From a virus (Duplodnaviria > Caudoviricetes), in IMG/VR virus record IMGVR_UViG_3300020048_000077, positions 1 to 64,000 of that record: a stretch of DNA of 64,000 nucleotides. One strand, 5' to 3'. Numbering within the stretch: position 1 is the stretch's first letter; the number at the start of each line of letters is the position of its first letter. Below are positions 3,001 to 44,756 of the stretch, one piece after another. The position numbers and the translations under genes are program-made. The notes beneath the pieces were generated by a model that saw only the letters and a program-made list of their open reading frames with translations, ran no database searches and was not told the origin of the DNA.

Positions 3001-5332
3001 GCGTGAAGAAATGGAGATGAGCATGCAGGCCTGGTTTGAGGAAAGAAAAAGAGTTGCGACTGAAAAGTATCTGGCGATACGTGAGATCATAGGTGCAGAC
3101 AAGAAGGAGGAGACGGATGCAATGCTTGACAGACTCATGGCGAACATTTTTGGAACAGAGATGCTTTCAGAACTTGCAGAGGAGTCTGAGATCGATCTGT
3201 CAAACCTTGTAGAGGCCAAACAGATCACTCCTGAGCAGGCAGAGAAGATATATACACGGGCAATTGATACCTACAACAGATTCAATGTGGACTTCGAACA
3301 GTGGCAGAGATCCAATCCTGACACATCGATCTATACAGTAGCTTCAAAAGGAGCGCTTCAGAACAAGGTGATGGAGAGCATGAAGAAGTTCCTCACCTAT
3401 GAGTCTCAGAAGGATTCATTCATGCGACCTGTATCAACAGATGACATGAACGATCTATCAGATCGTATACTTTCACTGTACAAGGACAATTCAAACGGAT
3501 CTCTGAAGGATCTGAGTTCTGTAAGTGATTACCATACTGAAACATCTATGCCACACATGCTGCGTGCAACAGAGGCCTTCTGGAAAGGTAAGGCACTTGT
3601 AGGTATAGCTGCACTTGCATCCACTCACCATGTGAAAAGTCAGATCGCAGGACTTGAAATGGTACTGGAGAACAATGAGAATGAAAAATCAAAGTTCAGA
3701 ACGGTGGACAATAGGAATCTGAACTTCGGAATACGTATGCAGGGATTTGATCCTGAGGCATACACACTTGACCTTGGAAGAGAATGGGATGTAAGATCAG
3801 ATAGAAAAGTGACGGATGTCATTTCTCAGATCGTGAACGCATCAGTTGACGTTGTGAACAATCCTATCCTGCACATACTGAATCTGAGCCCGGACAATGC
3901 CCCTGCCTGGCTTATTCTTGTACGGGCCGGAGTACCTTTGAATACGACCGGATTCTTTATGAATCAGCCTGTGGTCAAGGACTACATGAAGGCCATGGAG
4001 ATAAACAGGTCACGTGTGTTCAGAGGACTGCAGGAATCAGAACTTCCAGAGAAGGCTCTAAAGGATGTTCAGAAGAAATATGGAACTACAAGATCCGAGA
4101 ATGTGGAACTGTTCTCAGAGGAGCAGTTGGAAGGTATGGTTGGACGTGAGGCCGGACAATTGTCAGACCTTGAGAAGTCATATCAATTGCAGATCCTGGA
4201 TGACTTCATGACCTATTCTGAGATGGGAGATCTTCTTGGAAATGCTGTGCAGGCACAGTCCTTTGATACGAAGATCCCTAAGAACAGGCATCATTTGAAA
4301 GCGATTCAGGTCAAGTACAACAGACTTGTGGAATCCGGTATATTGAAGAATGTGCAAAGCATCACTGAAGGAAACACCTTCATGCGGGAGATGACAGCAT
4401 ACAACTTCAACATGAGTAACATGTTCAGGGATCTGTTCCTTACAGAGCAGGCAGGTGCCGTATATGACAGGATGTATGACAGGATGGTGTCCATGTATAC
4501 CGATCAAAGGGTAAGGATGTCAAATGAGGATGTTGCAAAGGTTCTTTCCAAGTTCGAAGAGGACTTCGTAACGTTCCTTCTGCAGACCATGGCGGATTCC
4601 TCAGGCGCCACTATGGGGAATAAGATCGAGGCAATGATGTTCGGAGAGAACTCCATGGCCATGAGGCTTGCTCGTATCCAACAGGATCCATCACATCCGT
4701 TGCATTCCAATACGTTCATTCAATCTCTTGTACCTGTAATGAGTACGAACAGGACCGGTGCAGATAGAACGAATGACTACATTCTACCTGTAAGTAGGAC
4801 CATGACCACATTCGAGTACAATACGATCTTTGATGGATTCAGAGAGATCGAGGAACAGGCTCCTAACATAGCCAAGGATCTTGTACATACAGCATTCTTT
4901 CAAGCTGGTACAGGGCAGTCCCCATACTCATTCCTTGAGACAATTCCTGGAAGCTCATTCATGAGACTTGGGGAGCAGATCCTCGGATCCTTCCTGAAGA
5001 ATCCTGCGGAGATAGATGTGCAGAAGTTCTACACTCTCTTCTTCCAGAACAATCTGGACAACACTTTGATCGTACCCAAGGGAACGAAGAAGACAAATGC
5101 CATATTCCCGGTCACCTTCAAATACAAGGGAGGAAAGGTGTTCAAAGTGAACAAGGCACTTGATGGTGAACTGGCCCTGTCATCATCTGTTGCACAGGTA
5201 GGCATCAATAGAAAAGGATCGGTAACTTTGAAGAATTACACGAGCCGATACTTTATTCCAAAAAATCAGGTATCCACAGATCTTTCCATAGAGGAGATCG
5301 ATTCTGAGGATACTGAACAGGACAGATGCTGA
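2..5332 (+). CDS. Virion RNA polymerase, crAss-like (5'-truncated; catalytic beta'-like part)
   Basis: GSDFDIDKL motif (GAT TTT GAC ATC GAC at 2936-2950) preceded by GIRIPT. DFDID is the crAss-type variant of the DxDGD catalytic loop. The frame is open from base 2, so the TTG at 32 is not the real start. Confidence 0.93.
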   Translation, partial: WEANGRIKSTLDNSHIYLNAEGKITFDPSMMSKFTQGSSTVQASLKDIRAKLEGSSLRYKIDALAHLGFEFSDPDKVLEMVEDRERVDDELFSDAITEAAIYLYEDIIKGNLKTFNPFDREESMSVTRFNRLAKIELRTFEQNVEFQSDGPDGKVTYGITLNTYMSTIANTDIEDLDQYFDPVKNPYVAGSLTLAALRKSRNNKIKVHNVGGLGVEGASVRGEKMSKLGATDIAAVQIHILMNGLMPMIRTADQTTEFALEFPIKYPNNLDAAMETIFDYLKDEMISSFKGRVDGQHIKDYADRIQNLRMFSYLNEEVPAVKTFMASEASTEDVVKFIDENRDAIDEAIRKQFKADMIEIQKYLEEYGLVDEVNDKDKRFLRGISRELFKSAEGSMSDTVDEHKFQGFLERLAVRHFVGKTEIFKSILGDPALYKALYKRTKGASGTKKIFIADEQLDNWLNTYSIPTESGENLSIAREQFDGKVSDGTEKIVVIQEPTKVAQYIEEYNRMLEEGKWSARTVIPYIDPADMGDGTMIVSLPAYREMGIRAQEWSPEQEIAYLMEMFPEKYPRKAIEGGAFPPAKFQYFGQRRSFGTDMSPHTYLKMSVVPIYPSLAMKDGKVHFPEIMEMYGYMMDNSMGGLVLPSAVKIGGPAEGQLEDGTDLRVPAYVNTLDANGKKIQLLQLPKTAPQQVSILDLDYRFMGSQLDVSSKFKGKAPIATQARVQVLADLYAGGTLRFPELEGDIEVYHEAYNTLMKREFKSLLDTFGLEVSSKEGEEMNFKLKEGGNYKAFLDAIEKEAVARELPKALLDSIDYMRTRDAENHPVLFDMIVNKGRMEGVLWSLAGKRVIKQKFKGDQYVQMSSIGFGVRAQEGTGNVIEDRLGFYTNEKGNFEMEVYLPHHFKELIGTDVSINKKGQIVDSENKVIGEKGLLDLIGIRIPTDGPHSVEVIRVKGFLPLKAGPTVVVPSELITKAGSDFDIDKLVLYFPSYKMKGGKLVREEMEMSMQAWFEERKRVATEKYLAIREIIGADKKEETDAMLDRLMANIFGTEMLSELAEESEIDLSNLVEAKQITPEQAEKIYTRAIDTYNRFNVDFEQWQRSNPDTSIYTVASKGALQNKVMESMKKFLTYESQKDSFMRPVSTDDMNDLSDRILSLYKDNSNGSLKDLSSVSDYHTETSMPHMLRATEAFWKGKALVGIAALASTHHVKSQIAGLEMVLENNENEKSKFRTVDNRNLNFGIRMQGFDPEAYTLDLGREWDVRSDRKVTDVISQIVNASVDVVNNPILHILNLSPDNAPAWLILVRAGVPLNTTGFFMNQPVVKDYMKAMEINRSRVFRGLQESELPEKALKDVQKKYGTTRSENVELFSEEQLEGMVGREAGQLSDLEKSYQLQILDDFMTYSEMGDLLGNAVQAQSFDTKIPKNRHHLKAIQVKYNRLVESGILKNVQSITEGNTFMREMTAYNFNMSNMFRDLFLTEQAGAVYDRMYDRMVSMYTDQRVRMSNEDVAKVLSKFEEDFVTFLLQTMADSSGATMGNKIEAMMFGENSMAMRLARIQQDPSHPLHSNTFIQSLVPVMSTNRTGADRTNDYILPVSRTMTTFEYNTIFDGFREIEEQAPNIAKDLVHTAFFQAGTGQSPYSFLETIPGSSFMRLGEQILGSFLKNPAEIDVQKFYTLFFQNNLDNTLIVPKGTKKTNAIFPVTFKYKGGKVFKVNKALDGELALSSSVAQVGINRKGSVTLKNYTSRYFIPKNQVSTDLSIEEIDSEDTEQDRC

Positions 5333-10229: not shown

Positions 10230-10576
10230 GCATCAAAAATATACTCTCCAGATACCCAACGGAATAAAGTGCCCCTCGAAATTCCAGGATGCATGACATG
10301 AGGTGTTCTTTGAAAATGCCTGAATACTTCTTTTATCTTATCCGGGACATTTGCTGCAACACATTTGTATACAGGTACAGTACTTGATATGAGTTTTACA
10401 CCTCTGCACGTATATTGATAATCTGGAAACTTCTTGTACTTGCCAAAAAACTTGAACTGAAGTAAATGCAGATTTTTTTCATTACCACCTACAACCATGC
10501 AGATTCTGCATGTATCATATATAGGTCTCACAACAAAATCTCCAATCATCAGTGGGGTTCCAATAGAATCTGTCAT
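10226..10576 (-). CDS. Hypothetical protein
   Basis: Start moved to MTDSIGTPLMIGDFV, which gives an ATGA overlap with the upstream gene's stop. Confidence 0.6.
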   Translation of the reverse strand: MTDSIGTPLMIGDFVVRPIYDTCRICMVVGGNEKNLHLLQFKFFGKYKKFPDYQYTCRGVKLISSTVPVYKCVAANVPDKIKEVFRHFQRTPHVMHPGISRGTLFRWVSGEYIFDA

Positions 10577-10932
10577 AGGAACAGAGATGTAGCGATCACA
10601 GCTATCAAAGCTCCGGAAATAGCCGAAATGCCTGATATGATGATCACATCGATGTTTGAGAATCCTGGCTTCACAGGAGTGGGACATGGAGATACTGAGA
10701 ACAGCTCAGGAACTCTTGCATTCATCACCTTGTCCATGTGATGCTTTCTCAATGCAGGGGGAAGCTTGATAAATGCCTCTGCACAATAACTTCTCTGCGC
10801 TTTTAGAAGAAGTTCAAGGTTTGATTTGATCACAGAAGGATCATTGGGAATAGTGGTACTCATTTTAAAGAAAGTGTTTGAGGGTGAATAAAGAAAGAAC
10901 TCCAACGCCTTGCTGGAGGTAATAGGTATCAA
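10573..10932 (-). CDS. Hypothetical protein
   Basis: 119-aa ORF in a chain of ATGA-coupled genes. Confidence 0.6.
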   Translation of the reverse strand: MIPITSSKALEFFLYSPSNTFFKMSTTIPNDPSVIKSNLELLLKAQRSYCAEAFIKLPPALRKHHMDKVMNARVPELFSVSPCPTPVKPGFSNIDVIIISGISAISGALIAVIATSLFL

Positions 10933-30262: not shown

Positions 30263-32863
30263 TTAAATTGTTGTGGTCTTCAACACTATCAACTCAATTG
30301 CAGGCTCACTCTGAATCACTCTTCCGAGCCGATCCTCCACCATTCCAAAACGACTGATATCCGCACCGTCATGGATCAAGCTGTTCAATCGCTCCCAATA
30401 CGCATGCCCTTCAGAAGTATCTTTCCATTTAAACCCATAGGATAGATAATGACATGGTATCAGGGGCTCGACTTCAACAGTGAAAGTGGCATCGAAGTAA
30501 GAACTTGCAGCACTCGCAATATGAGGCGGTAGATTCTTCTGATACCAATCAATGAATTTACATCTCCGTATCTCCAAAGGATCTTCTACAGGAGTTGATA
30601 TGATCTCTGCCCATTTACCACCATCATAAATTCCCGTACTCAATACTTTATCTTCAAGCCTGCCACAAGTAGCGATTTTGAATTCCCCGCAGGAAGTATC
30701 AGCATGTCTACTATTATTTCTTGAAGTAGGAATGTATTGGGTTCCTTTAGGGTATCTTCTACGTGCTTCTTCAAGTATCTCTTCCATGCCAATTGTCCTT
30801 ACAGGTTCAGGTGCAGGTATCTCATGAGGCAGAGCCCTTCTGCAAACAATAATGCCTCTACCTATATGAACTGGAATATTTTCGAAGGAATCCCATTCAT
30901 CAGATTTTACTGGATTCAAGAGATTTCCAGAAATGGAAGGAACAGAAATATCTCCATAACTTTTACCCAAAGGACGTACACCTACACTTTTGATGATTCC
31001 AATACATCCGTTATTGGCATGTTTGTAGCCCCATCCACCGGCATCCACCATCACCGCATACTCTCCTACCTTAGGCTCCCACTTTTCTTCTACCGATTTC
31101 TCAACAGGTGGAACGAATCCCACAGGCATGAGTTCAAAAGCAGGACTCTTATGGACATCTTTTCCATGATATCTTGGGTTTTCAGTACCATCAGAAATAC
31201 CGAATTTATTACATGCTCCCCAATACTCATAGGAATTCTTGGAAGATACGAATTTCAGATAATCTCCTTTATGACAAGGGTAATGCCCTTTAGCATGGTC
31301 ATCTAGACACTTTATATACCTTCCAGTAAGATCTTCTTCTACTTTCATGGTCTTCTTCTTTTCCTGGTCATCGTAGGCTTCCTTAGTTGATGGTTTGAAA
31401 TGATCTTCTACACCTTGAGTTGATTGACCGCTTCCTTCACTATATAAGATTCTATAAGAATATTTAGAAGTATCTGTTTTATAAACACCTCCGACTTTAG
31501 TGTAATTACCCCAACCCTCCGGTAACTTGATGCACTCCACATACTCAGGAACAACACTTTCAGTCACCTTCTTAGAATCTTCCAATGACACGAATTTATT
31601 AACTTTGATGCAGGCTTCTAACCAGTGTTTCTCTTCTTCAGTTGCTTTGGTCATGTAAGTTGCAGATGAAAACCTACCCGGATTCCAATAATCTGAAGAG
31701 TTACCTCGGATTGCAATAGCAGAAGAAGATTTGTTTTCAGTACACTTTCCTATAACAGGATCTCTATCGTTCTCACTATAATTATACCTATAAACCTCTC
31801 CCTCAACAAGATCAACAAACTTCAGTCTAACAGGTGCTTTCTCCTCAGCAGACTCTTTCAACACCCACTTTTTGAATTGATCAAAGGTAATCTCTGTGTA
31901 TCCTACCTTAATCTCATTCCAATAATCAATGATTTTCTCCCCATCATAATGGTAGTATGAATCTGAATTTCCAGTTAGATTTCGGGGATTACCACTCCAT
32001 AATCTGAAACGAGACTGTTTGAGCTTTTCACCTCCTCTGATACACCATTTCTCAGGCAATTCTGTAAGTTCTTTCATAGTAGGTGTTTTATCGACATGAC
32101 CTTCAGGTAAGTATTGTTGAATTCCTGATAGATCTGAAAGTAATTCAAATCTGCAACTTAAACGTGCAAAATTTTTACTAATTCTGAATTTGTATCCATC
32201 ACCAAAATCATAAATTTCTTCTGAATAATGCCACTCTGAACCTTGTAATTTTAAGAATTTCTTCCATCCATTAGAAGAAAGAGATGCATACCACTTTCCA
32301 ACTTCAAACTGAGGTTCAGTCTTTACGGGTGCTGGAATGTCCTCTTCGAACTCTACAGGTTTAGCAACTATTTTTGCCCAAGTACCCCTATGATAAACAT
32401 TTGGAATCCACTTCAATTCTGAACTTCCCTTAACACATTTACCTTCAAATCCCACATTTTCAATCTGATCAGTAGGATAATAAGGAGTATGTGAAACAAT
32501 CTCATACACCTCCGGAACAGAAGACACACGGACAGGTGTGAACCATGTACCGATGGGATACCTCTCCTTAGCTTCCCTTAGAAGTTTCTCTCCGGGTGAT
32601 TCCTCAGGCTTTGAACTTATCTCAGCCCATTTTCCATCCCAATACAGATATCTGTTAAAACTTGTCAGTCCGTATTTTGGATCTTTGTCTATATTCCAAA
32701 GATGGTCCTCAATTTTACTGACAATGTCGTCAGCACTAAATGTAAAATCTGTGTCCACAACTATACACCCTACGTCCTTTTTACTTACATGAGGTGGATG
32801 AAACACAGTACCTACAGGATAGTCTTTCTTTGCCTTTTCAAGCAGTTCTTCTTTTGTTGTCAT
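30263..32863 (-). CDS. Modular repeat protein (866 aa)
   Basis: Three copies of L-x-x-A-x-x-x-YP-x-GT...G-x-WA-x-I plus other small modules; AT-rich codon usage. Confidence 0.8.
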   Translation of the reverse strand: MTTKEELLEKAKKDYPVGTVFHPPHVSKKDVGCIVVDTDFTFSADDIVSKIEDHLWNIDKDPKYGLTSFNRYLYWDGKWAEISSKPEESPGEKLLREAKERYPIGTWFTPVRVSSVPEVYEIVSHTPYYPTDQIENVGFEGKCVKGSSELKWIPNVYHRGTWAKIVAKPVEFEEDIPAPVKTEPQFEVGKWYASLSSNGWKKFLKLQGSEWHYSEEIYDFGDGYKFRISKNFARLSCRFELLSDLSGIQQYLPEGHVDKTPTMKELTELPEKWCIRGGEKLKQSRFRLWSGNPRNLTGNSDSYYHYDGEKIIDYWNEIKVGYTEITFDQFKKWVLKESAEEKAPVRLKFVDLVEGEVYRYNYSENDRDPVIGKCTENKSSSAIAIRGNSSDYWNPGRFSSATYMTKATEEEKHWLEACIKVNKFVSLEDSKKVTESVVPEYVECIKLPEGWGNYTKVGGVYKTDTSKYSYRILYSEGSGQSTQGVEDHFKPSTKEAYDDQEKKKTMKVEEDLTGRYIKCLDDHAKGHYPCHKGDYLKFVSSKNSYEYWGACNKFGISDGTENPRYHGKDVHKSPAFELMPVGFVPPVEKSVEEKWEPKVGEYAVMVDAGGWGYKHANNGCIGIIKSVGVRPLGKSYGDISVPSISGNLLNPVKSDEWDSFENIPVHIGRGIIVCRRALPHEIPAPEPVRTIGMEEILEEARRRYPKGTQYIPTSRNNSRHADTSCGEFKIATCGRLEDKVLSTGIYDGGKWAEIISTPVEDPLEIRRCKFIDWYQKNLPPHIASAASSYFDATFTVEVEPLIPCHYLSYGFKWKDTSEGHAYWERLNSLIHDGADISRFGMVEDRLGRVIQSEPAIELIVLKTTTI

Positions 32864-33125: not shown

Positions 33126-33154
33126 GATATTAAATGTGTTTGTAAAATGTTGAG

Positions 33155-33297
33155 TGAGGGATCCAGGACTTGAACCTGGAGAGCGTACTTAGAGTCAGAT
33201 TTCATATCGAGGATATCTGTATTCCCTGTTCTGCTTGTAGTTTCCTACGAAGGACAATATCAATAATTGTTGCGTCTACCAATTCCGCCAATCCCCC
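33155..33297 (-). tRNA. tRNA-like RNA (Leu-type D arm, A73) with a 74-nt variable region and non-canonical anticodon loop
   Basis: Acceptor GGGGGAT/ATCCCTC, D arm GCGGAATTGGTAGACGC, T arm CCAGG-TTCAAGT-CCTGG, anticodon arm ACAAT-TATTGAT-ATTGT. Confidence 0.7.
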
Positions 33298-33324
33298 TTG
33301 TGCCAGTCTTTCCTGGCAGTCTTT

Positions 33325-34431
33325 TCAATAAGCCAGACTCAAAGAGCTAAGAGTCTTTCTGGCCTCTATGGTTCTTTCCACACGAAGGAAGAGTCCTTTG
33401 AAAGGCTCTTTCTCCAACTTAGAGTTTAACAGTTTCTTTCCTGTATCAGCATCATGCACATGAAGATCTTCCAATGGAATATCCACGAATGAACTATGTG
33501 CAAGAAGAATGCCTATAGTCTTAGGATTGGCAAGCCGGAACCGATACTCCTTCCTGCCTTTATACCAATCGTAGTGTGGATGATCGTGAGCATTATGCGA
33601 AACTTTGAATGAAACTGCAGTAGTACCCTTTTCATCCTGTTGCATGAGATTGGAGTTGTAGGTAACTATACCTACCTCAATATTCATGTGTGGAAGTACC
33701 TGATCGAATGTATCCGGATACATGTCCACCACATAGGCGATCTTATCACAGATGTCATAGGACAGATCCGATACCTTCTCAAGAAAGGCTTTGAGACGTT
33801 CAGGGTCATTGACAGTGGTCTGCTCTTTGATGAAATCCAATGCCACATCCACTGTCAATGGATCGAATTTGAAATCGAAGAGTATGCGACCAGGTCTGTT
33901 GAAAAGGAACTTGGAAAGATTCCTACGTTCATTCACGGTCATCACATTGAATACCTTCACAGCAGTTGTAAGACCGTCAAAGAAAGTAAGCAAATCTGCG
34001 GATGGATCTCCAGCCTTAGTATCAGCCGATGAATAGTTCTTCTCAAATTCATCGAAAAGAAGCATTACAGGCCCTCCTACACATTCAAGGACGGCCATAA
34101 TGATATGCATAGGCTGTCCATTTACAAGAAGAATGGGAAGATCCGTGGCCTTGGCCACATTGAGCGCTGTCTGCGTTTTTCCATTCCCTGAAGTGCCTGT
34201 GAGCATCACTGATGGATTCTTACTGGTGGAACTGTTCCACAATGTGATCATCGTGTCCATTGCCTCCTTCGCAGTACCTGTAAGATTGGGCACTGTATGT
34301 GGATCAGCAAGCTTCTCCAGATGTATTCCGGCCATTGTCTCCACGATCTGATAAAAACCGAAAGGAAGTTTTGGAAGTAATTTTCCTGAATTGCCGATGA
34401 GATTGAACGTTGTTCCTTTTTGATAAAGCAT
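33325..34431 (-). CDS. AAA+ ATPase
   Basis: GTSGNGKT, LLFDEFEK and NRPGRI motifs. Confidence 0.88.
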   Translation of the reverse strand: MLYQKGTTFNLIGNSGKLLPKLPFGFYQIVETMAGIHLEKLADPHTVPNLTGTAKEAMDTMITLWNSSTSKNPSVMLTGTSGNGKTQTALNVAKATDLPILLVNGQPMHIIMAVLECVGGPVMLLFDEFEKNYSSADTKAGDPSADLLTFFDGLTTAVKVFNVMTVNERRNLSKFLFNRPGRILFDFKFDPLTVDVALDFIKEQTTVNDPERLKAFLEKVSDLSYDICDKIAYVVDMYPDTFDQVLPHMNIEVGIVTYNSNLMQQDEKGTTAVSFKVSHNAHDHPHYDWYKGRKEYRFRLANPKTIGILLAHSSFVDIPLEDLHVHDADTGKKLLNSKLEKEPFKGLFLRVERTIEARKTLSSLSLAY

Positions 34432-34493
34432 GATTACTGTTGTTTTAGATTGTTTTTATTACTGGTTTTTAAGCTTCAATCCCAACTGTATAT

Positions 34494-35198
34494 CTACTTC
34501 ATTTTCTGAGTATATCCTACGTTGAACAAGAAGAGTACGTAAATGGCAAGAATGAAGATCACTTCTAATATCCAAAATCTGGTAGATTCCAACAGAATTT
34601 CAGCTGTCACATTCGGAATGACCTGTCCGAACATGTGGGCATACAGGAATGCACATGCAACTGTTGTGAATGGGAAGGAAAAGAGTGAAAGAATAAGCGC
34701 TGTTCCGAAGGAAATAAACCTGTCCTTTACAACTTCTTTTCTCTTGTAAGGTCCTCTCGATCTGACTACCTTTTCTTTCAGTACCTCTTTAAGAATTGCA
34801 GGTTCATCCACTTTGTTCTCCACGGTCGGAGTAGCAGTATAAGTGGAAGCCGTTGTTTCTACCGGATCAGAAGACTTTGAAGAAATTCTACCGGCTGCCT
34901 GCGTCTCCTTATACTGATGGATACGTGAAATGATCTCTCTTACCATTTCCGCATTCGGAGCAGTGGGAGATTTCCATACTATACGTCCATCCTTATTACC
35001 GATGATGCCTCCATTTGTAAGAATAACATATAGCATTCCAGCATCTAAGGAGAGTCCCTTCTCCTTACGCAGATATACAGTGAGATCGTCACGTTTATAA
35101 AAAATAAGGGTAGGACTTTGAAGTGCAGCATGCATCTCCTTCATTACTTTGGTGTACTTGATTACCATTCTTGGAACGGTGTTTCTCTCTTGTGACAT
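34494..35198 (-). CDS. Hypothetical protein with two C-terminal transmembrane helices
   Basis: Start moved to MSQERNT because the track start lies inside the upstream tRNA. Confidence 0.7.
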   Translation of the reverse strand: MSQERNTVPRMVIKYTKVMKEMHAALQSPTLIFYKRDDLTVYLRKEKGLSLDAGMLYVILTNGGIIGNKDGRIVWKSPTAPNAEMVREIISRIHQYKETQAAGRISSKSSDPVETTASTYTATPTVENKVDEPAILKEVLKEKVVRSRGPYKRKEVVKDRFISFGTALILSLFSFPFTTVACAFLYAHMFGQVIPNVTAEILLESTRFWILEVIFILAIYVLFLFNVGYTQKMK

Positions 35199-35243
35199 GA
35201 AAAAAAGGTTTAAGATTAGTGTTTGAACGTGTTTAAAATTTAG

Positions 35244-35318
35244 TGGAGGATGCAGGACTCGAACCTGCGACCATACTGCAAGAAGCAGTTTCTCTCTAAC
35301 CATCTGAGCTAATCCTCC
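35244..35318 (-). tRNA. Degenerate tRNA, nominally Arg(TCT)
   Basis: Perfect acceptor GGAGGAT/ATCCTCC and T arm. The anticodon loop CT-TCT-TG has U37, and the D and anticodon stems have mismatches. Confidence 0.65.
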
Positions 35319-35391
35319 TACCACCGGTCTTTCCCGGTTGTCAATGGTACTGCACCCGCACCATCTGGGATCGTCTTACGACAATAAAATT

Positions 35392-35775
35392 AGCAGAGAG
35401 GTGTGCTGTTACGCTAAATGCTCAACGGAATCTACATCAGCCTTGCTCCTGTGGCCTTATTGCCTACCACATCCTCAGTGTTCACGACACCAGGTTAAGA
35501 GGTTAAGTCCCGGATCCTCTCGTACAAGGGAACCTTACTGATCATTGAGTTACTTACCTGAATACTACTCCAGCGGGCCTGAGGATCTACGAGTCTTTCA
35601 ACTTTAGAGGCAGGTTACTGTATAATAGATTTTCATGTTCACTCCTCCCGAGTTCTTCCGTTACGCGCCCTACAATTCAGGTTTCACGGTACTTGGATTC
35701 GCGTTTTACCAAGTATTCCCTCTTTGCAACTCCTTAGATGATGGCTGCTTCCAGGCCAACATTCCAGCTCTGCCT
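35392..35775 (-). ncRNA. Structured ncRNA mimicking the 23S rRNA GTPase-associated centre and sarcin-ricin loop
   Basis: H43-like GCUGGAAUGUUGGCCUGGAAGCAGCCAUCAUCUAAGGAGU (35768-35729), SRL core GUACGAGAGGA (35525-35515), H44-like GCGUAACAGCACAC (35414-35401), closing helix GGCAGAG/CUCUGCU. Confidence 0.85.
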
Positions 35776-36831
35776 TTACTTGTACCTGATCACATCAGAC
35801 CATGAAGGTCCATTACTGACAAATACCTTGTCGAACTTCACATTCAACGATGCAAGAAGACCATCGATGTCAATATGGAACTGGTCCATACATGTCACCA
35901 CAAGATTCTTCTTCCTTCCTACAGAATACGGAGAATCGCACTCCAGAGCGTAATTCAACAACTGTGGATTGAGATGTGCGATTCTGAACTCTCCTTGATG
36001 CTCATTGAAAATGTTTGTCTCGTTCTCATTGTTTCTGAGTTCAAGCTTGCATTCATCAGGAAAATACCCATTACCATGTCTTGTAGCATAGCTACGTGTG
36101 ACATAATAAGTTTCATCATTTTCTCCTCTCCACATGCTTGCATTCTTGCCAGTGGTGTTCGACCTTGTGACATTGGGAAAGAACCCATGATCCATATCAA
36201 GAAGAATGCCTTGAGCGCCCTCGTAGATAGGAGTTCCACCTATACTGAACAGATTTGGCACCACCGTAATGATCTCTTTCACTCTTTCCACAAACCCATT
36301 GAACAGGTCTATGGACACATGTAGTTCAGTTGAAGATGGACATTTCGAATACTTCTCTATGTTCTCCAGCTTTCCAGCAAGAACATCCGGATAGAACAGA
36401 TCTCGCACATGCAATTTGTAATGATGTTCCTGTCTTTGTATAGTGGTGCCAAAACCGGCCCCTACAGAACCATGATTCATGATCTTCTCACGTTCTCTGT
36501 TACGACAGATGTCGAACGGAGTAGTGATAATGGCCATGGGATTCACATAGATCTTAGGAGCTACAATCTTTCCAAGAAGAACATCATACTCTCTTACAAG
36601 CGCAGGAGGATAGAGAGTACAGTACTCACTCCAGTAAGTTGGAGCACCTTGAAGTGTTCCTGAACCGAAGGAGGAGAATACATGCCTCTGTCCCTTGTGT
36701 ACGACAGTATGCCCTGCCTGATGCCCACCGTTGAATCTTACAACGATGGGATCAGGAACAGTAGTGCATAGATATGAGGTGACAAGACCTTTGCCCTCAT
36801 CTCCAAACCCAAGTCCAAGAACAGTGCTCAT
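35776..36831 (-). CDS. purA: Adenylosuccinate synthetase-like protein (short, divergent PurA homolog)
   Basis: GFGDEGKG, RFNGGHQAGHTV and EGAQGILLD...PNVTRS motifs. Confidence 0.85.
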   Translation of the reverse strand: MSTVLGLGFGDEGKGLVTSYLCTTVPDPIVVRFNGGHQAGHTVVHKGQRHVFSSFGSGTLQGAPTYWSEYCTLYPPALVREYDVLLGKIVAPKIYVNPMAIITTPFDICRNREREKIMNHGSVGAGFGTTIQRQEHHYKLHVRDLFYPDVLAGKLENIEKYSKCPSSTELHVSIDLFNGFVERVKEIITVVPNLFSIGGTPIYEGAQGILLDMDHGFFPNVTRSNTTGKNASMWRGENDETYYVTRSYATRHGNGYFPDECKLELRNNENETNIFNEHQGEFRIAHLNPQLLNYALECDSPYSVGRKKNLVVTCMDQFHIDIDGLLASLNVKFDKVFVSNGPSWSDVIRYK

Positions 36832-37712
36832 AGCATGTCAACTTTCGGAGTTGGTGCTGTGCCTGCATCTTGTACAGGGGCATCTGAAGTAACTGATGCA
36901 GGACTCACTCTCAATGTCTTCAGGATGATATCTGATAAGACCATTGGAAGAGTGGTGTGATCAGTGATCACGATACAATTCTCTCCAAGGAGTTCCTTCC
37001 ATCGGGGATCCACATGTCTTCCACCATGATCCACATGGATGTGAAACACATGATTGGTCTCCTGAGCCTTTGTAAGGAGTTCTGCAGCCGTGAATGATGT
37101 ACCTTGGCCAGCAGCTGCAGTTCCCATAAGTCCTTTTACAGCGCTCATCGGAAGAGTTGTCAGATTAGGTTCATCACCTACGGTGAATACGAATCCTTTT
37201 GCTCTCCTTTTGGAGAAGGCATCCGTTTGGATGTGATTTGATGCAAAGTACCATGCAAGAAGATAACTCTCACCTGCATTTCCTCCACCTCCACCTTCAA
37301 GGAAGGTACGTGTCAACCACATGTCCAGTTCTGCATCTCCTGATTCGAACTGTCCGATTTGAAGAGGGAAACGGTCACACTCGTGATCACCGATGGCCCC
37401 GAACATCAAAGAGATGTCATTAAGACCCTTCTGGATGAGTCCTCCCATCAATTTGGGAAGACCTTCCTTGATCAGTTCATGTGGTATATGGCCCATACTA
37501 CCGGTCACATCCAAGTACAGCTGTACAGGAATGGAATGCGGGTGTAGCTCTGAATCCCGACTCTCTCTGAATGCCACTCCCGAAGGGTTCATGGCAGCAT
37601 GTATCTGCCTGGATTCAGATTGAGTGAAGATCTTAGTGACAGGTGCAGTTGCATACTTCATCGTAGTTGCCCGTTCTAAACGAGCATCTACGGAATAACT
37701 TGAATTTCCCAT
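36828..37712 (-). CDS. vWA-domain protein
   Basis: MIDAS-like DVTGSMG, IGDHECD, GGGGGNAGESY and GDEP; N-terminal MG. Confidence 0.75.
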   Translation of the reverse strand: MGNSSYSVDARLERATTMKYATAPVTKIFTQSESRQIHAAMNPSGVAFRESRDSELHPHSIPVQLYLDVTGSMGHIPHELIKEGLPKLMGGLIQKGLNDISLMFGAIGDHECDRFPLQIGQFESGDAELDMWLTRTFLEGGGGGNAGESYLLAWYFASNHIQTDAFSKRRAKGFVFTVGDEPNLTTLPMSAVKGLMGTAAAGQGTSFTAAELLTKAQETNHVFHIHVDHGGRHVDPRWKELLGENCIVITDHTTLPMVLSDIILKTLRVSPASVTSDAPVQDAGTAPTPKVDML

Positions 37713-37715
37713 GGC

Positions 37716-38075
37716 TCAATTGTCTTGGAACAGGTGTTTGTAACGTGTCTTTGCAATGTCAAGCTTGATCTCAAGGTTCCTGATGGTGATACCGAGTTCA
37801 ATATCCTTCTCTACGAAGGCCTTGGCATCGAAATCTGCAGCCAGTACAAGACTGATGGCATCAGTAGGTGACATGTCAAGCATTCCTTCGCGTTCACGCT
37901 TGATCTGCTTCAACTGTACCTCAAGATCCTCCACCTGTCGTTTGTAGAGCATATCTGCTGCCTCAGCAATGGCCACGGCACGATCAGCTCTGATCTTCTT
38001 GTTGTTTCTCAATAAAGATGCTCCGAAAGCTCCTTTCATTTCTCCCAGTCCTTCTGGTGTTACGTCTTCTGACAT
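37716..38075 (-). CDS. Hypothetical helical protein (paralog of 42111-42452)
   Basis: Shares the AF-x-x-x-L-x-R-x-N-x-K-x-x-x-DRAV motif with 42111-42452. Confidence 0.75.
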   Translation of the reverse strand: MSEDVTPEGLGEMKGAFGASLLRNNKKIRADRAVAIAEAADMLYKRQVEDLEVQLKQIKREREGMLDMSPTDAISLVLAADFDAKAFVEKDIELGITIRNLEIKLDIAKTRYKHLFQDN

Positions 38076-38098
38076 GATTATTTGGTTTTTAAAATTGA

Positions 38099-38386
38099 TT
38101 ACTTTACTTGAATGTCGATATCCATCAGAATCTTTCCGAGGAGTGTGAATGTGGCCCTTGCAGATTCTCTTGTAAGAGTGAACTTGGAAATGTTCATACC
38201 ATCCTTACATTCCAACCCTCCAAAAGGGGGATGATCCATCTCTTCAGGAAACTTAGGACGTTCATACTTGAAATGTATCAGTTGACCTTCTTCTGAAGAT
38301 CCTACCCATACCGTTCTGTCATCTCCAAGGTCTACTTGAAGACCATCTACTGTGATAGGAGGCTTTTCTTGTTTTTTCTTTGCCAT
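38099..38386 (-). CDS. Hypothetical protein
   Basis: 95-aa ORF with an A-rich leader. Confidence 0.7.
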   Translation of the reverse strand: MAKKKQEKPPITVDGLQVDLGDDRTVWVGSSEEGQLIHFKYERPKFPEEMDHPPFGGLECKDGMNISKFTLTRESARATFTLLGKILMDIDIQVK

Positions 38387-38399
38387 TGCATTGATGTTA

Positions 38400-38940
38400 C
38401 TTGATTTTCAATTTAGCACCCTCTTTCTTATATCTTGGTCTAGTCGCCAAAGCTTAAAGAGTAGGGTCACATAGATATTAAGGCAATGCAGGCAACAGAC
38501 CTACTTTAACCTGTTTAGCAGACAGGACCTTATAACTACTTGCTGAGAACTCATTTGTATTGTGTGCTGGATACGGCTATATTTTCAAGTTAGCACAATA
38601 TATGTTTCACCCATTTCCTTTCTCAAGGGAACAATACATCTAGGATTACTCCGTAGGTAGTGGCAATTTAACCTCTCTGATCTCTTAGTCCCAGTGAACT
38701 TATTCCACACTATTAAGCAGTCTGCTACTGCCCCTCTACTGTCAATTCAGTATCTAATATCTTTCCGCTAGTCCGCTTACGCAGAACACGAGAGGTTCAA
38801 TGTTTAGCCTTTTTCTTCAATAATTAGGACAACCGCATCTTCCAGAGTCTTGGGCCTGACGGACGGTACGGTGTGTAGGCATTCCTACTTCGATGCAGAC
38901 TTCGATGGTCTCAACTCCACGTCCGCACTTAGTCCATATC
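38400..38940 (-). ncRNA. Candidate structured ncRNA with 16S rRNA-like motifs
   Basis: ORF-free 540-nt gap with many helices. Contains TACACACCG (38877-38869), ATTAGATAC (38758-38750), GAATTGAC (38748-38741) and CCTACGG (38657-38651). Confidence 0.65.
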
Positions 38941-39417
38941 TTAGGAATTCAATAGTTCTTCAACCTTTTTCAATGCACTTATGAACCGACTTTCCTCATT
39001 CATGAATGGAAGAAGTTCTTCTTTGATAGCTGTTAATCGGTTGATTTCAGTTAGATGAGTGAGATAGACTATCCTTAATTCAAGGTCATGGACTATCGAT
39101 TGAATCTGAATGCCCTGTACATTCATAAGAAGCGGAACTTCTATGCCAGCATCTTTACAGAATTGCTTGTCGTAATGGAGCATATTCTTGTAGTGGGCCA
39201 GTACTCTTCGTAACCAACCGAGTTCAGAACATACACTGATGTTCACAGTGTTCTGAGATGCCTCAGGATTTGTTATAGATACTGATATATGATATTTCAT
39301 ATCTGCAACTCCAAGATCTTTGAGTCTTGCATCAATTTCATTGATCTTATTTTCCAGAGCAAGTTGTCTTCCTTTTTTACTTGAAAGACCTGAGCTTCTT
39401 TTTGCTAAAGCGGTCAT
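38941..39417 (-). CDS. Hypothetical protein
   Basis: 158-aa ORF. Confidence 0.7.
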   Translation of the reverse strand: MTALAKRSSGLSSKKGRQLALENKINEIDARLKDLGVADMKYHISVSITNPEASQNTVNISVCSELGWLRRVLAHYKNMLHYDKQFCKDAGIEVPLLMNVQGIQIQSIVHDLELRIVYLTHLTEINRLTAIKEELLPFMNEESRFISALKKVEELLNS

Positions 39418-39442
39418 TTTTCTACGTTTTTAATTGTTTGAT

Positions 39443-39517
39443 TGGTTGTGGCTGGGGGAATCGAACCACCGACCTCCTGCGTATAAGACAGGCGCTCTAC
39501 CACTGAGCTGTACCACA
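39443..39517 (-). tRNA. tRNA-Ile(TAT) with encoded CCA
   Basis: Anticodon arm CCTGT-CT-TAT-AC-GCAGG, D arm GCTC/GAGC, TTCGATT loop and 3' ACCA. Confidence 0.85.
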
Positions 39518-39564
39518 ATGGCGCCCACTCTCTTTCAATGTCCTTCGTGGAGAGTGGGCTGTTT

Positions 39565-39715
39565 GTTCACATGATATTCAAAAGTCTTAAGCTAACGCTT
39601 TAGATCTAATGCTCTAACCAGCTGAGCTACAGGGCTTTGTTTCTCTTTAAAGAAGCCCTGATGGGATTCGAACCCATGACCCTCAGATATTGAAGATACT
39701 TCTGATCACATGAAC
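39565..39715 (-). ncRNA. Circularly permuted tRNA mimic, YrlA/Y-RNA-like
   Basis: Order is T arm (39677-39661), loop-closed acceptor CAGGGCT/AGCCCTG, then D arm (39627-39611). The ends pair as GTTCATGTGAT/ATCATGTGAAC and CAGAAGT/ACTTTTG. Confidence 0.8.
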
Positions 39716-39812
39716 GGATGAACCTCAGTCTCAAGCTTTGACCCAACACTAATTCTAAGTTACCTCGAATATATGATGTTGATGCTAATGCTCAGGCTTT
39801 GGTCAATTTCTA

Positions 39813-40616
39813 CTATTTCCCGTTGAAGAGGTATCCGAAGATCCTCTGGGATGTCAATTCCGATTGATGCACTTCTACCTCATTGCACTGCTTCAGAGCA
39901 ATGACAACTGCTGTAAGCAACGTTGTACGTCTCTTCAACATGCCGGCACGTTCTCTTTGAGAAGCTTCTCCAGAGAACTCCTGTACAGTGTAGTCTCCCA
40001 CATCAAGGACAGTTGTTCTGTTGGCCACCTGAGGAACATATCCTTTGATGTCCTCCTTACCTGTGAGGTTTGGATCCTGAAGGATGTACTGCTCCTTCTC
40101 CGTGGTCTTGATCGTACCTTCCAGTATAGGAAGCTGATAGATTCCTGCTCTATCCTTGTACAGGTCTGAAGTGGCCTCACTCCATTGTTTCGAATCGCTT
40201 CTTACTGGAATGCTCTCAAGCATGATGGTAAGATCACTGTTCTCAATGATGCTCTTCAATCTGAGGAGTTCAAGAGAAGTGTATACTCCCCAATCTTCAC
40301 CCTCTACCACCAAAGAAGCAGTAGCTGTACCGGAGGCATTGGTCTTCTCCTGTGCGAACAGGGCATCAATGTACTCTCCTGCATTGTCAAGGAACCAGGC
40401 CAGCTTCTCACCTACAGTGGTCTGAACGATTATGGTTCCTCTCTTAGTGGGATCATCGGCCATGCCGTCCTTCACTGCAAATGTTTTCTGATACCCTTGA
40501 AAGGCACCTTGTTTTCCTGAGAAGAACTTCGCAAAGTCCTTCAACATGTTCTTGAACGGCACTGCAAGACTGTCAGTCTTTGCAAGTAGTACGTTGAGTT
40601 TCAATTCTTTAGACAT
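39813..40616 (-). CDS. Conserved hypothetical protein upstream of the Y-like RNA
   Basis: Resembles an uncharacterised KLN...VG-x-x-T-x-x-x-FSG family (DUF7873-like) that I recall beside Ro60/TROVE loci; not verified. Confidence 0.7.
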   Translation of the reverse strand: MSKELKLNVLLAKTDSLAVPFKNMLKDFAKFFSGKQGAFQGYQKTFAVKDGMADDPTKRGTIIVQTTVGEKLAWFLDNAGEYIDALFAQEKTNASGTATASLVVEGEDWGVYTSLELLRLKSIIENSDLTIMLESIPVRSDSKQWSEATSDLYKDRAGIYQLPILEGTIKTTEKEQYILQDPNLTGKEDIKGYVPQVANRTTVLDVGDYTVQEFSGEASQRERAGMLKRRTTLLTAVVIALKQCNEVEVHQSELTSQRIFGYLFNGK

Positions 40617-43406: not shown

Positions 43407-43594
43407 CGTTTATGTGCCCCAGGCTTCGTCATGCCCTCTCCATCTTTGTAGCCTGATTCAGCCACATTGAGACGGAATATTGCTCTACGTGTAGAACGTG
43501 AGGCAATAGGTTGGAAATTACGTGCTTTCCTCTTAGCATATCTCTTGCTGTTAGGATCTTGCTTCTTAAGCTCTTTTGGTTCTTTGGTTTCCAT
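43400..43594 (-). CDS. Small basic protein
   Basis: 64 aa, K/R-rich. Confidence 0.55.
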   Translation of the reverse strand: METKEPKELKKQDPNSKRYAKRKARNFQPIASRSTRRAIFRLNVAESGYKDGEGMTKPGAHKRW

Positions 43595-43644
43595 GATGTT
43601 ATTGATTGAGTTTGATTGTTTTTTAAAGTTAATACCGCCTTTCT

Positions 43645-44289: not shown

Positions 44290-44756
44290 TGATGATCGTG
44301 GTTAGTTTAGGAATGTTAGTTTTGAATACCTTAATCAACAGCATGAGCTGGTCACATTTGGATTTGACTTCAGTGACTTAATGACCCAACCGGAAAGAAT
44401 GGCCCGCAATGCGTGCACCACTCGATCCGGAATTGCCTGCATTGGTTCAGCAGGTGTAGCTAATCCACGCTCAAGAGGTTTCCACACCTATGATGAACAT
44501 GATTTCTCGACTGACTACGGACATCTTCCTCTTTATTAGCATCAAGAGGAGATGGTTGTACTATTGAGGAATGTGCTGAGTTCTGCTCAGGTCACATTCC
44601 TTATACTCCGGTAACATGTACGACAGTATCACTGGACATGGTGGGAGGAGTGAGATATAGAGGGTGACAGGTACTTTCAACTGACCTTGATAAGCTGGTC
44701 AAATCTTATATTCTACTGCCCTTAGTTTGTTGCCTGGATCCTTGGCCCCTCTAATA

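Follow-up and report, generated by a model that had tools for sequence, protein, structure and literature searches.

The window analyzed here is a 64,000-nt stretch (positions 1 to 64,000) of IMG/VR record IMGVR_UViG_3300020048_000077, a phage genome of 89 kb that is 100% complete by CheckV and whose terminase is approximately 40% identical to those of crAss-like phages. Within 6.6 kb, it carries two tRNAs, two tRNA look-alikes, and two large folded noncoding RNAs (ncRNAs), here called RNA-B and RNA-C, interleaved with protein genes.

Genes and RNAs of the island

33153..33297, minus strand: tRNA-shaped RNA; the sequence shows an acceptor stem of 7 bp together with a D arm of the Leu type and a T arm
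33325..34431, minus strand: AAA ATPase (PF00004, 7.9e-7; phrog_2376, 3e-45)
34494..35198, minus strand: unknown protein whose C-terminus is hydrophobic; four libraries gave no family match
35243..35318, minus strand: tRNA-Arg(UCU) (ARAGORN and Rfam, 47.5 bits)
35392..35774, minus strand: RNA-B, structured ncRNA with closing helix GGCAGAG/CUCUGCU
35776..36831, minus strand: PurA-like enzyme (PF00709, 2.2e-41; phrog_1211, 1.4e-55)
36828..37712, minus strand: predicted vWA-fold protein with a MIDAS-like DVTGS motif (AF2 and Foldseek)
37716..38075, minus strand: 119-aa protein that accompanies the PurA-like and vWA genes in 6 loci
38099..38386, minus strand: 95-aa unknown protein; no family match
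38410..38815, minus strand: RNA-C, structured ncRNA of a crAss-like phage family; conserved blocks within the 38387-38940 gap
38941..39417, minus strand: 158-aa unknown protein; a homolog in the close relative G001 is 70% identical in amino acids
39443..39517, minus strand: tRNA-Ile(UAU) (ARAGORN and Rfam, 50.8 bits)
39576..39722, minus strand: Y-like permuted tRNA-like RNA; T arm, 7-bp acceptor-like stem, D arm, and a longer stem
39813..40616, minus strand: DUF7873 protein (PF25283, 4e-34)

A sequence-only reading of this DNA had described six RNAs interleaved with an AAA ATPase, a PurA-like enzyme, and a vWA protein as one suite of translation-apparatus mimics. The six RNAs are all present on the minus strand, as are the named proteins, whose three assignments were confirmed, but the 16S label given to RNA-C was lost. 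The PurA-like enzyme belongs to PF00709 at the family level only; NCBIfam equivalog scores of 121 bits (cut-off, 402) and 41 bits (cut-off, 300) led us to reject PurA and PurZ, respectively. The vWA protein had no Pfam HMM match. With its AF2 model (pLDDT 87) as query, Foldseek gave a probability of 1.0 for matches to VWF A, integrin beta-I, and NorD, and the modeled Rossmann-like fold, together with the MIDAS motif, places it among the vWA-domain proteins.

We defined tRNAs as cloverleaves above the RF00005 gathering score of 29 with a 7-nt anticodon loop. Both tRNA-Arg(UCU) and tRNA-Ile(UAU) belong to this family, and ARAGORN agrees. The former, previously described as degenerate, is slightly atypical (U37 and a G10/A25 mismatch) but nevertheless passes as a tRNA. 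The two are ordinary tRNAs that match heavy use of AGA (41% of the Arg codons in the phage) and AUA (ATA; 35% of the Ile codons), and they would supply these favored codons.

RNA-B and the 23S factor-binding center

RNA-B had been proposed to mimic 23S rRNA, a claim that was borne out. Its 5' part (35769-35731) copies 23S 1050-1088 (H43 and the junction), its 3' part (35415-35401) copies H44, and the two ends together rebuild 23S H43/H44, the uL11/GTPase-associated center (GAC). An insert of approximately 300 nt carries a sarcin-ricin (SRL) hairpin (35532-35499), with GUACGAGAGGA at 35525-35515. As reference sites, we took the tip of H42, H43, and H44 (E. coli 1051-1108) for the GAC and H95 (2646-2674) for the SRL. 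RNA-B has 28 of 32 bases as in E. coli 23S 1057-1088, with a local alignment score of 44, whereas 150 shuffles reached no more than 36, and the H44 block AGCGUAACAGCAC was found with GUAACA, a loop that also occurs naturally in 23S. The SRL 11-mer matches exactly, and the surrounding 45 nt are invariant in three phages. In the alignment of RNA-B with its relatives, 93% of cells are paired, and double-sided pair changes number 28, compared to 11.4 +/- 2.6 in shuffles (0/500) and 2-6 in slid controls. Such double changes affect six of the seven pairs of the terminal helix.

These data bear on an alternative in which the resemblance to rRNA is accidental or is left over from captured host rRNA that no longer functions. 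Such a reading does hold for the 16S motifs of RNA-C (see below) and for an H23/H24 segment proposed in RNA-B, which we rejected as unconserved and at chance level; other local matches of RNA-B to the large-subunit (LSU) model were at shuffle level as well. However, no shuffle scored as high as the GAC and SRL blocks. In distantly related phages, these blocks either stay unchanged or covary, and cultured phages show the same design. For these blocks, conservation and covariation refute the reading, to which we give next to no credence. RNA-B is also not an LSU rRNA gene (RF02541): its match to the Rfam model is a local one of only 58 nt (positions 1093-1148) whose 12.8 bits fall short of the gathering score of 50.

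The GAC and the SRL are two collaborating domains of the 23S factor-binding center (PMC2330231). Compared to that center, RNA-B keeps 33-34 of the 43 bases of 1047-1089, an H44 hairpin with the natural loop, and, of the SRL, the core G2655-A2665 including the GAGA tetraloop. The 1082/1086 pair is retained by a double change (C-G in the window, U-A in relatives); RNA-B varies at 1061, a position that is variable in rRNAs too, and A1067 in the H43 loop is not always retained. Unlike the ribosomal center, RNA-B is phage-encoded, approximately 385 nt long, self-closed, and located outside an rRNA gene. Its GAC is split by the 300-nt insert within which the SRL lies, and its SRL stem has one extra C.

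We define here a family of GAC-mimic RNAs, stand-alone genes with a terminal closing helix, an H43 copy, an insert, and an H44 copy. All of these features are found in the window, in L068, L069, and L034, and in the cultured phages XacN1 and pf16, whose versions lack the SRL. Relatives of RNA-B occur in five other IMG/VR records, and nucleotide identity of the RNA stays at 75-80% even where the proteins that the phages have in common show an identity of only 20-31%. Several members lie in or adjoin tRNA arrays (pf16, G002, G003, and L034), the pf16 copy being placed between tRNA-Asn and tRNA-Pro; in the window, RNA-B adjoins tRNA-Arg. Those of L034, L035, and L052 lie within tRNA/tmRNA arrays, and the L034 array includes a tmRNA. 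RNA-B is an independent RNA gene and belongs to a broad family in phages, of which we found no description.

Because RNA-B copies both the GAC and the SRL, a decoy or imitation role would be reasonable, judged from its sequence. The two ends rebuild the GAC, closed by the RNA's own terminal helix, and in this subgroup the insert displays the SRL. Off the ribosome and with host components, we infer, RNA-B would imitate the factor-docking site. It could be a sponge for a protein that attacks or recognizes this site, for example, an SRL-cutting toxin; alternatively, it may bind uL11 or a translational GTPase. Ribosomal protein leaders are comparable in that these RNAs mimic rRNA binding sites (e.g., PMC7247131), and RNA-B likewise imitates a protein-binding site of rRNA outside the ribosome. 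However, the leaders are short, cis-acting mRNA leaders of cellular ribosomal protein operons, whereas RNA-B is a stand-alone phage gene that has no ribosomal protein gene nearby and unites two distant rRNA sites.

RNA-C and the two tRNA look-alikes

RNA-C is also a real ncRNA family, though not the 16S-motif RNA that it had been called. It is carried by nine IMG/VR records (including that of the window) and by Cellulophaga phage phi14:2, where the homolog occupies an intergenic region (KC821624, about 2917-3375). The shared core of this phi14:2-type crAss-phage intergenic RNA consists of a GNRA hairpin, a 7-bp helix enclosing a GAGA hairpin, the AAUGAGUUCUCAGCAAG block, and the 3' helix ACCCUACUCUU/AAGAGGGU. 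RNA-C has every core block and helix, with covarying GNRA hairpins and a compensatory change of GUAUUGU/ACAAUAC to or from GUGUUGU/ACAACAC. In both phages, which are crAss-like, the RNA is located in the early/accessory part of the genome; unlike its phi14:2 homolog, the window's copy has an extra 5' stretch, the 5' 125 nt of the 38387-38940 gap being unconserved. The best local score of RNA-C to 16S rRNA was 23, equaled in 32 of 150 shuffles, and approximately three exact 9-mers shared with 16S are expected by chance. The 16S motifs lie in unconserved parts or at covarying stem positions and are not kept by relatives. Consequently, we rejected RNA-C as a small-subunit rRNA mimic. The suggestion that the locus extends a counter-defense strategy to rRNA functional sites could find a basis in RNA-B, which copies the GAC and the SRL, but not in RNA-C.

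Neither RNA-B nor RNA-C matched an Rfam family at E<=10, GOLLD and ROOL included. T4 species 1 and 2 RNAs, GOLLD, and ROOL are stable ncRNAs found in or beside phage tRNA clusters, and RNA-B and RNA-C resemble them as large structured RNAs among or beside phage tRNA genes. To our knowledge, none of those RNAs copies an rRNA functional site.

RNA-B and RNA-C could instead be cis-acting parts of adjoining genes, such as a leader, a 3' UTR, or a scaffold for tRNA/mRNA processing. The arrangement in the window invites this explanation, as RNA-B begins directly after the stop codon of the PurA-like gene and ends 73 nt before tRNA-Arg, and hairpins with a GAAAGA loop lie upstream of both tRNA-Arg and the tRNA-shaped RNA. 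However, the neighbors differ in every phage that carries RNA-B or RNA-C, and the XacN1 copy of RNA-B is followed by its own terminator. The long intergenic regions of phi14:2 were reported as abundant, stable transcripts from early infection on, at the g004-g005 and g005-g006 junctions (bioRxiv 10.1101/2020.03.07.982082), while our homolog is placed by KC821624 coordinates and not by gene numbering. On balance, we consider a cis-acting role very improbable. RNA-C is a member of a different crAss-phage RNA family, with its phi14:2 homolog in a kind of intergenic stretch that was reported as abundantly transcribed.

The two tRNA look-alikes are singletons. In the tRNA-shaped RNA, approximately 100 nt replace the anticodon and variable region. 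ARAGORN gave no call in default mode and one only in the low-threshold -ps mode, with a forced 49-nt intron. The RNA had no Rfam match at E<=10, is not a member of RF00005, has a fold z-score of -0.64, and has no homologs in G001-G003. The Y-like RNA has a fold z-score of -2.6, and a homolog search found none. It is not a tandem-tRNA artifact, given that the upstream sequence lacks a matching 5' acceptor strand and the downstream sequence lacks a T arm. Its module at 39604-39685 shares the T arm, acceptor-like stem, and D arm of YrlA and bacterial Y RNAs (RF02553; PMC4201824), with 39.4 bits to the YrlA model (E 4.5e-6), but this is below the gathering score of 69 and covers model positions 23-88 only, leaving the Rsr-binding part unmatched. 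A Y RNA gene is expected within 4 kb of Rsr/Ro60 (TROVE), on the same strand, and with a GNCGAAN0-1G motif close to the Ro-binding helix (PMC4201824). We found no Rsr/TROVE gene in the complete 89-kb phage genome, in a search whose positive controls matched, and the motif is absent from the sequence of 39560-39730. The Y RNA identity was therefore rejected. Both look-alikes are probably lineage-specific tRNA derivatives, as far as their sequences tell.

Co-occurrence of the modules across phages

At the system level, the claim for this locus was that all six RNAs, along with the proteins encoded between them, are co-transcribed and make up a single system, in which the rRNA-like RNAs would assemble with each other or with neighboring proteins into a decoy particle or mini-ribosome-like RNP. 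All elements do lie on one strand within 6.6 kb, and a terminator scan found no strong intrinsic terminator between 40.65 kb and 33 kb; a strong terminator-like hairpin (40685-40654) is upstream of the DUF7873 gene. Promoter and terminator scans of the region were at chance level, and a single transcript may still span the island. However, the shared strand is a weak argument because the minus strand carries all genes over 36 kb, from approximately 10.2 to 46 kb. RNA-B and RNA-C also occur together in two distant phages (G000 and G002), but order and spacing differ in G002, and no protein neighbor is common to the phages that carry either RNA.

Across relatives, the elements occur independently, in a small sample in which several records are fragments. 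RNA-B is found without RNA-C in G003, a complete record of 128.8 kb, and RNA-C without RNA-B in phi14:2, G005 (complete), and G008 (98%). In the close relative G001, the syntenic stretch retains RNA-C, tRNA-Ile, and the AAA ATPase (62% amino acid identity, adjoining tRNAs and ORF158), with no RNA-B, PurA-like, vWA, or DUF7873 gene, Y-like RNA, or tRNA-shaped RNA. The PurA-like and vWA genes, which overlap by 4 nt in the window, are neighbors in 64 of 66 loci; 61 of these 64 are without RNA-B, and the AAA ATPase is absent from PurA-like loci. The distribution of the pair is unrelated to that of the RNAs, and the pair is a separate, widely spread gene cassette. As RNA-C is not rRNA-like, the proposed assembly of two rRNA mimics into a mini-ribosome lacks one of the two partners. 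The physical cluster is real, then, but independent occurrence defeats the system-level claim, which we regard as improbable.

Since the modules are inherited separately in other phages, they are best described as independent cargo and not as one machine. Our preferred reading, with a probability of about 0.7, is that this stretch represents an accessory island of RNA genes in a Crassvirales phage, a mosaic of independently inherited modules rather than a dedicated multi-part system.

Independent modules could still have a purpose in common. Each RNA might act alone to counter defenses that cut or modify tRNA or rRNA, the RNAs having gathered in tRNA islands through selection and recombination favoring that spot. 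Phage tRNAs are known to offset tRNA-cutting defenses, and the RNA-B family, as described above, recurs in or beside tRNA arrays, one of which holds a tmRNA too. VapC toxins that cut the SRL exist (PMC5175351). However, no protein of the region matches defense or anti-defense families, codon use alone explains the two tRNAs, and neither RNA-C nor the two look-alikes hint at a target. We consider this common purpose unlikely, albeit less so than the single system. The mosaic reading leaves room for a looser connection. In two separate lineages, those of the window and of the L034 group, only a few kb lie between RNA-B family members and the PurA-like/vWA cassette, and half of the phage copies of the cassette are inside tRNA arrays. 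Given this proximity and the cargo in tRNA arrays, a shared theme, whether translation takeover or anti-defense, may link the modules without obligate partnership. tRNA arrays repeatedly accumulate accessory cargo.

RNA-B and the ribosomal factor-binding centre

In the window, the 451-nt gap following the PurA-like gene contains RNA-B (35392-35774, minus strand), whose conserved, self-closed fold follows the GTPase-associated centre (GAC) of 23S rRNA in both sequence and pairing constraints and displays a sarcin-ricin loop (SRL). Its 5' end equals E. coli 23S positions 1057-1088 at 28 of 32 bases, with a score of 44 (150 shuffles reached at most 36), and the Rfam LSU model matches the RNA locally at H43/H44, the helices of the GAC and the site of uL11. 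The 3' end includes AGCGUAACAGCAC, which corresponds to the H44 hairpin, and its loop is of a kind common among natural 23S rRNAs; a search of these for the GUAACA loop found it widespread in bacteria and archaea, and such a natural variant is uninformative on the host. Between the H43 and H44 halves lies an insert of about 300 nt, which includes GGUUCCCUUGUACGAGAGGAUCCGGGAC, a sarcin-ricin hairpin with its core bases retained. When three sequences were aligned, 93% of cells were paired, and both-sided changes were seen in 28 of 98 pairs, compared with 11.4 +/- 2.6 in shuffles (0/500) and 2-6 in slid controls; these figures are inflated because the structure was inferred from the same three sequences, but the margin is still large. 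The terminal helix has both-sided changes in six of its seven pairs. The tertiary pair 1082/1086 is C-G in the window's RNA-B and U-A in its relatives, and position 1061 is U, G or A within the family.

Two other readings of the sequence were rejected. A second 23S segment (H23/H24) gave a local score of 11, far under the shuffle level, and is unconserved in two relatives of RNA-B (L068 and L069). RNA-B was also considered as a conserved ORF, given the Shine-Dalgarno-like GGGAGGAG that lies 6 nt ahead of an ATG (window 35655-35612, minus strand; counterpart at 10688-10924 in the related record G003). The frame opened there spans 10 codons in the window's copy and 79 codons in that of G003; a second relative, G002, has no start. 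The GGGAGGAG block itself never varies, and its predicted pairing partner, GAUCCUC, is invariant too.

Homologs of RNA-B in the IMG/VR records G002 and G003 have 75-80% nucleotide identity, and the proteins these records have in common with the window are merely 20-31% identical. A profile search of the retrieved loci added distant members in three PurA-like loci (L034, L035 and L052), which carry the SRL variant GUACGGGAGGA and are located within arrays of 9-10 tRNAs and a tmRNA. By BLAST against cultured phages, an SRL-less version of the closed H43-insert-H44 design was found in two of them, Xanthomonas phage XacN1 and Pseudomonas phage pf16, both copies being unannotated. The XacN1 copy (L214:1475-1780; AP018399 about 150300-150610) lies directly 3' of a gene annotated as a 2'-5' RNA ligase and ends at its own clear intrinsic terminator, and the pf16 copy is flanked by tRNA-Asn and tRNA-Pro. 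These cultured carriers make the function of the family open to genetics and biochemistry now. Stricter pattern searches found less. The gapped pattern GAAGCAGCCATC...GTACGAGAGGA had zero matches in IMG/VR, where the relatives deviate by one base in the first block; an SRL 20-mer had three matches in a metagenome scan, all chance occurrences in GC-rich coding DNA; and an SRL 21-mer had no match in contigs of cellular genomes, hence no sign of RNA-B there at that stringency. Literature searches found no published description of an RNA like RNA-B. In the arrays of L034 and L052, the tmRNA gene is at about 10343-10688, and L052 also has a tRNA with a CUA anticodon (L052:12293-12364), labelled Pyl by ARAGORN, which is possibly an amber suppressor.

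The GAC and the SRL jointly form the factor-binding centre of the ribosome (PMC2330231). SRL RNA in isolation binds IF2 and EF-G (PMC3496166), and the SRL is the cleavage target of VapC toxins (PMC5175351). RNA-B copies both halves of this centre and, taken singly, is remote from all described systems. It could be a small, independent replica of the 50S factor-docking site, in which the insert would hold GAC and SRL together, and during infection it may trap a host protein whose usual ligand is this site. Capture of uL11 or of a translational GTPase would reprogram either translation or the stringent response, and capture of an SRL-directed defence toxin would protect ribosomes. A host effector aimed at the SRL or the GAC seems to us a slightly likelier target than uL11 or a GTPase. 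To the reading as a whole, that RNA-B acts off the ribosome by imitating the factor-docking site, we would give a probability of roughly 40%. If true, RNA-B would be the first case of a virus encoding its own mimic of a functional centre of rRNA, and tRNA islands would be a general depot for imitations of the translation apparatus.

tRNAs and tRNA look-alikes

Genuine and tRNA-shaped RNAs of the region
35243-35318, minus strand: tRNA-Arg(UCU), on which ARAGORN and Rfam agree (47.5 bits)
39443-39517, minus strand: tRNA-Ile(UAU), on which ARAGORN and Rfam agree
33153-33297, minus strand: tRNA-shaped RNA in which an acceptor stem, a D arm of Leu type and a T arm can be recognised

The sequence-only reading had described tRNA-Arg(UCU) as degenerate. 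It does have U37 and a weak D-stem pair, yet it scores as a tRNA. Within the phage's long ORFs, AGA makes up 41% of Arg codons and ATA 35% of Ile codons; ordinary codon supply explains both tRNA-Arg and tRNA-Ile.

The tRNA-shaped RNA was called by neither ARAGORN nor Rfam at normal settings, folds no better than shuffles (z -0.64) and had no homolog in the three relatives searched. At 39576-39722 (minus strand) lies a permuted tRNA-like RNA that had been called Y-like. Against the YrlA model it matches in the tRNA-like module only (positions 23-88), at 39.4 bits versus a gathering score of 69, and it lacks the GNCGAA motif. Chen et al. demanded of YrlA a location no more than 4 kb from rsr (PMC4201824); no Rsr/TROVE gene is present in the phage's 88,996-bp genome, and the Y-like RNA accordingly has no such neighbour. 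The same authors warned of tandem tRNAs as an artefact (PMC4201824), an origin that we rejected for this match on reading the sequence, as the acceptor strands pair mutually and flanking tRNA halves are absent. Neither the three relatives nor a junction-pattern search yielded a homolog, which makes the Y-like RNA a singleton, as is the tRNA-shaped RNA. Both retain a tRNA elbow and acceptor, and they might serve as substrates of, or baits for, enzymes that recognise tRNA.

Several smaller features accompany these RNAs. Hairpins with a GAAAGA loop occur upstream of the tRNA-shaped RNA (UGCCAG-GAAAGA-CUGGCA, 33318-33301, minus strand) and of tRNA-Arg (CCGG-GAAAGA-CCGG, 35341-35326, minus strand), each spaced 4-6 nt from its RNA, and may be processing or punctuation signals; tRNA-Ile is preceded by a different hairpin. 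The hairpin upstream of the tRNA-shaped RNA was also tried as 16S h40, and its score of 27 (1/150 shuffles, in one of eight tests) was put down to chance. In the related record G001, ARAGORN called a tRNA with a four-base anticodon, gaaa (31777-31851; L067:772-846), possibly of frameshift-suppressor type or else a miscall. G001 also has two group I introns (L067:8686-8917 and L067:13629-13908; 101 and 85 bits with Rfam); the window yielded none.

RNA-C and the intergenic RNA of phage phi14:2

Five of the six RNA labels in the sequence-only reading hold. The exception is the 16S label given to RNA-C, an RNA in the gap at 38387-38940: its best local score, 23, is at shuffle level (matched by 32 of 150 shuffles), and a 550-nt sequence compared with a 1542-nt rRNA should share about three exact 9-mers with it by chance alone. 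The stretch resembling the decoding strand falls in the 5' 125 nt, which are missing from relatives, and the 790-loop 9-mer falls in a hairpin stem that covaries among them. RNA-C is a family of its own kind, found with a 21-base core pattern in eight other IMG/VR records. The core comprises a GNRA hairpin with covarying stems; a 7-bp helix (GUAUUGU/ACAAUAC) around a hairpin, CCUU-GAGA-AAGG, that never varies; the block AAUGAGUUCUCAGCAAG; and, on the 3' side, the helix ACCCUACUCUU/AAGAGGGU.

All RNA-C blocks are also present in a 685-nt intergenic region of Cellulophaga phage phi14:2 (KC821624 about 2917-3375), with compensatory changes. For example, the 7-bp helix there reads GUGUUGU/ACAACAC. 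The transcriptome study of phi14:2 reports two long intergenic regions near there whose transcription exceeds that of most genes, is already seen at the earliest time point and does not fall later (bioRxiv 10.1101/2020.03.07.982082). The RNA-C homolog is probably one of these two. RNA-C links an uncultured phage to an intergenic RNA region of phi14:2, whose RNA can now be assigned to a family with a conserved core and a consensus fold. GenBank annotates three tiny minus-strand ORFs, gp007-gp009, across the homolog (L216:1190-1515; KC821624 3106-3431). An RNA gene has probably been miscalled as coding there, and two or more of the three are gone from RefSeq (the match covers gp007-gp008).

Independent cargo in a phage RNA-gene island

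Among the proteins between the RNAs, the AAA ATPase (PF00004) and the PurA-like enzyme (PF00709) are as first described, the latter falling under both the PurA and the PurZ equivalog cut-offs. The proposed vWA protein, of 294 aa, has no Pfam match; its identity was confirmed by a DVTGS MIDAS-like motif and by a model (pLDDT 87, from an alignment of 27 homologs) that Foldseek matched to vWA domains at probability 1.0. An earlier AF2 model from the single sequence (pLDDT 34) was discarded in favour of this one. In 64 of 66 loci the PurA-like gene immediately follows the vWA gene, and in 31 of the 66 the pair lies within dense tRNA arrays (7-12 tRNAs per about 6 kb). This PurA-like/vWA cassette (35776-37712) is a separate module. 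A search of the region's proteins for defence and anti-defence families returned weak P-loop matches only.

The elements within 33155-39715 had been proposed to form one co-transcribed system, and a check of co-occurrence across relatives, among the records that could be retrieved, found them occurring independently, one of the outcomes named in advance as refuting the proposal. G001 is a close relative (proteins 40-78% aa-identical, syntenic with positions 22.7-69.4 kb) that carries RNA-C, the AAA ATPase, tRNA-Ile and ORF158, a 158-aa protein at 38941-39417 in the window, in a differing order; it is without RNA-B, the PurA-like/vWA pair, DUF7873, the Y-like RNA and the tRNA-shaped RNA. The complete 128.8-kb G003 has RNA-B and lacks the RNA-C core motif. 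Conversely, RNA-C is present, and RNA-B and the H43 block absent, in phi14:2, G005 (complete) and G008 (98%). G002 has both RNAs, in reversed order and 2.6 kb apart. No protein neighbour of RNA-B or of RNA-C is common to the carriers. Given this separate occurrence and the lack of a common protein neighbour, the elements are inherited separately; their common trait is the type of landing site, an accessory or tRNA-rich part of phage genomes. The minus strand holds every gene from about 10.2 to 46 kb, so the shared strand of the RNA elements carries little weight. Scans for promoter and terminator consensus gave counts at chance level, with no Bacteroides-type -7 motif on the region's minus strand; the exception was a strong terminator-like hairpin (40685-40654) upstream of the DUF7873 gene (39813-40616). 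Of the proposed mimicry of rRNA sites one genuine mimic, RNA-B, stands, while the suite, its assembly and a mini-ribosome are unsupported, and effort on a search for such a multi-RNA particle is spared. We would classify the locus as a phage RNA-gene island whose cargo is remarkable but independent. Phage tRNA/ncRNA islands are a known kind of region; the cargo here is unusual.

The placement of the phage in Crassvirales was borne out by its large terminase, which shares about 40% identity with the terminases of crAss-like Bacteroidota phages, and the virus record, whose first 64 kb form the window, has a CheckV completeness of 100%. Near the strand switch are two gene-free stretches, 44290-44756 (467 nt) and 43407-43644 (238 nt), neither of which has an Rfam family; the former matches G001 weakly over 68 nt (E 0.004). 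Between the tandem TAG TAG stops of the DUF7873 gene and the Y-like RNA, a hairpin-forming stretch (39812-39723, minus strand) contains two copies of CAAAGCYUGAG.
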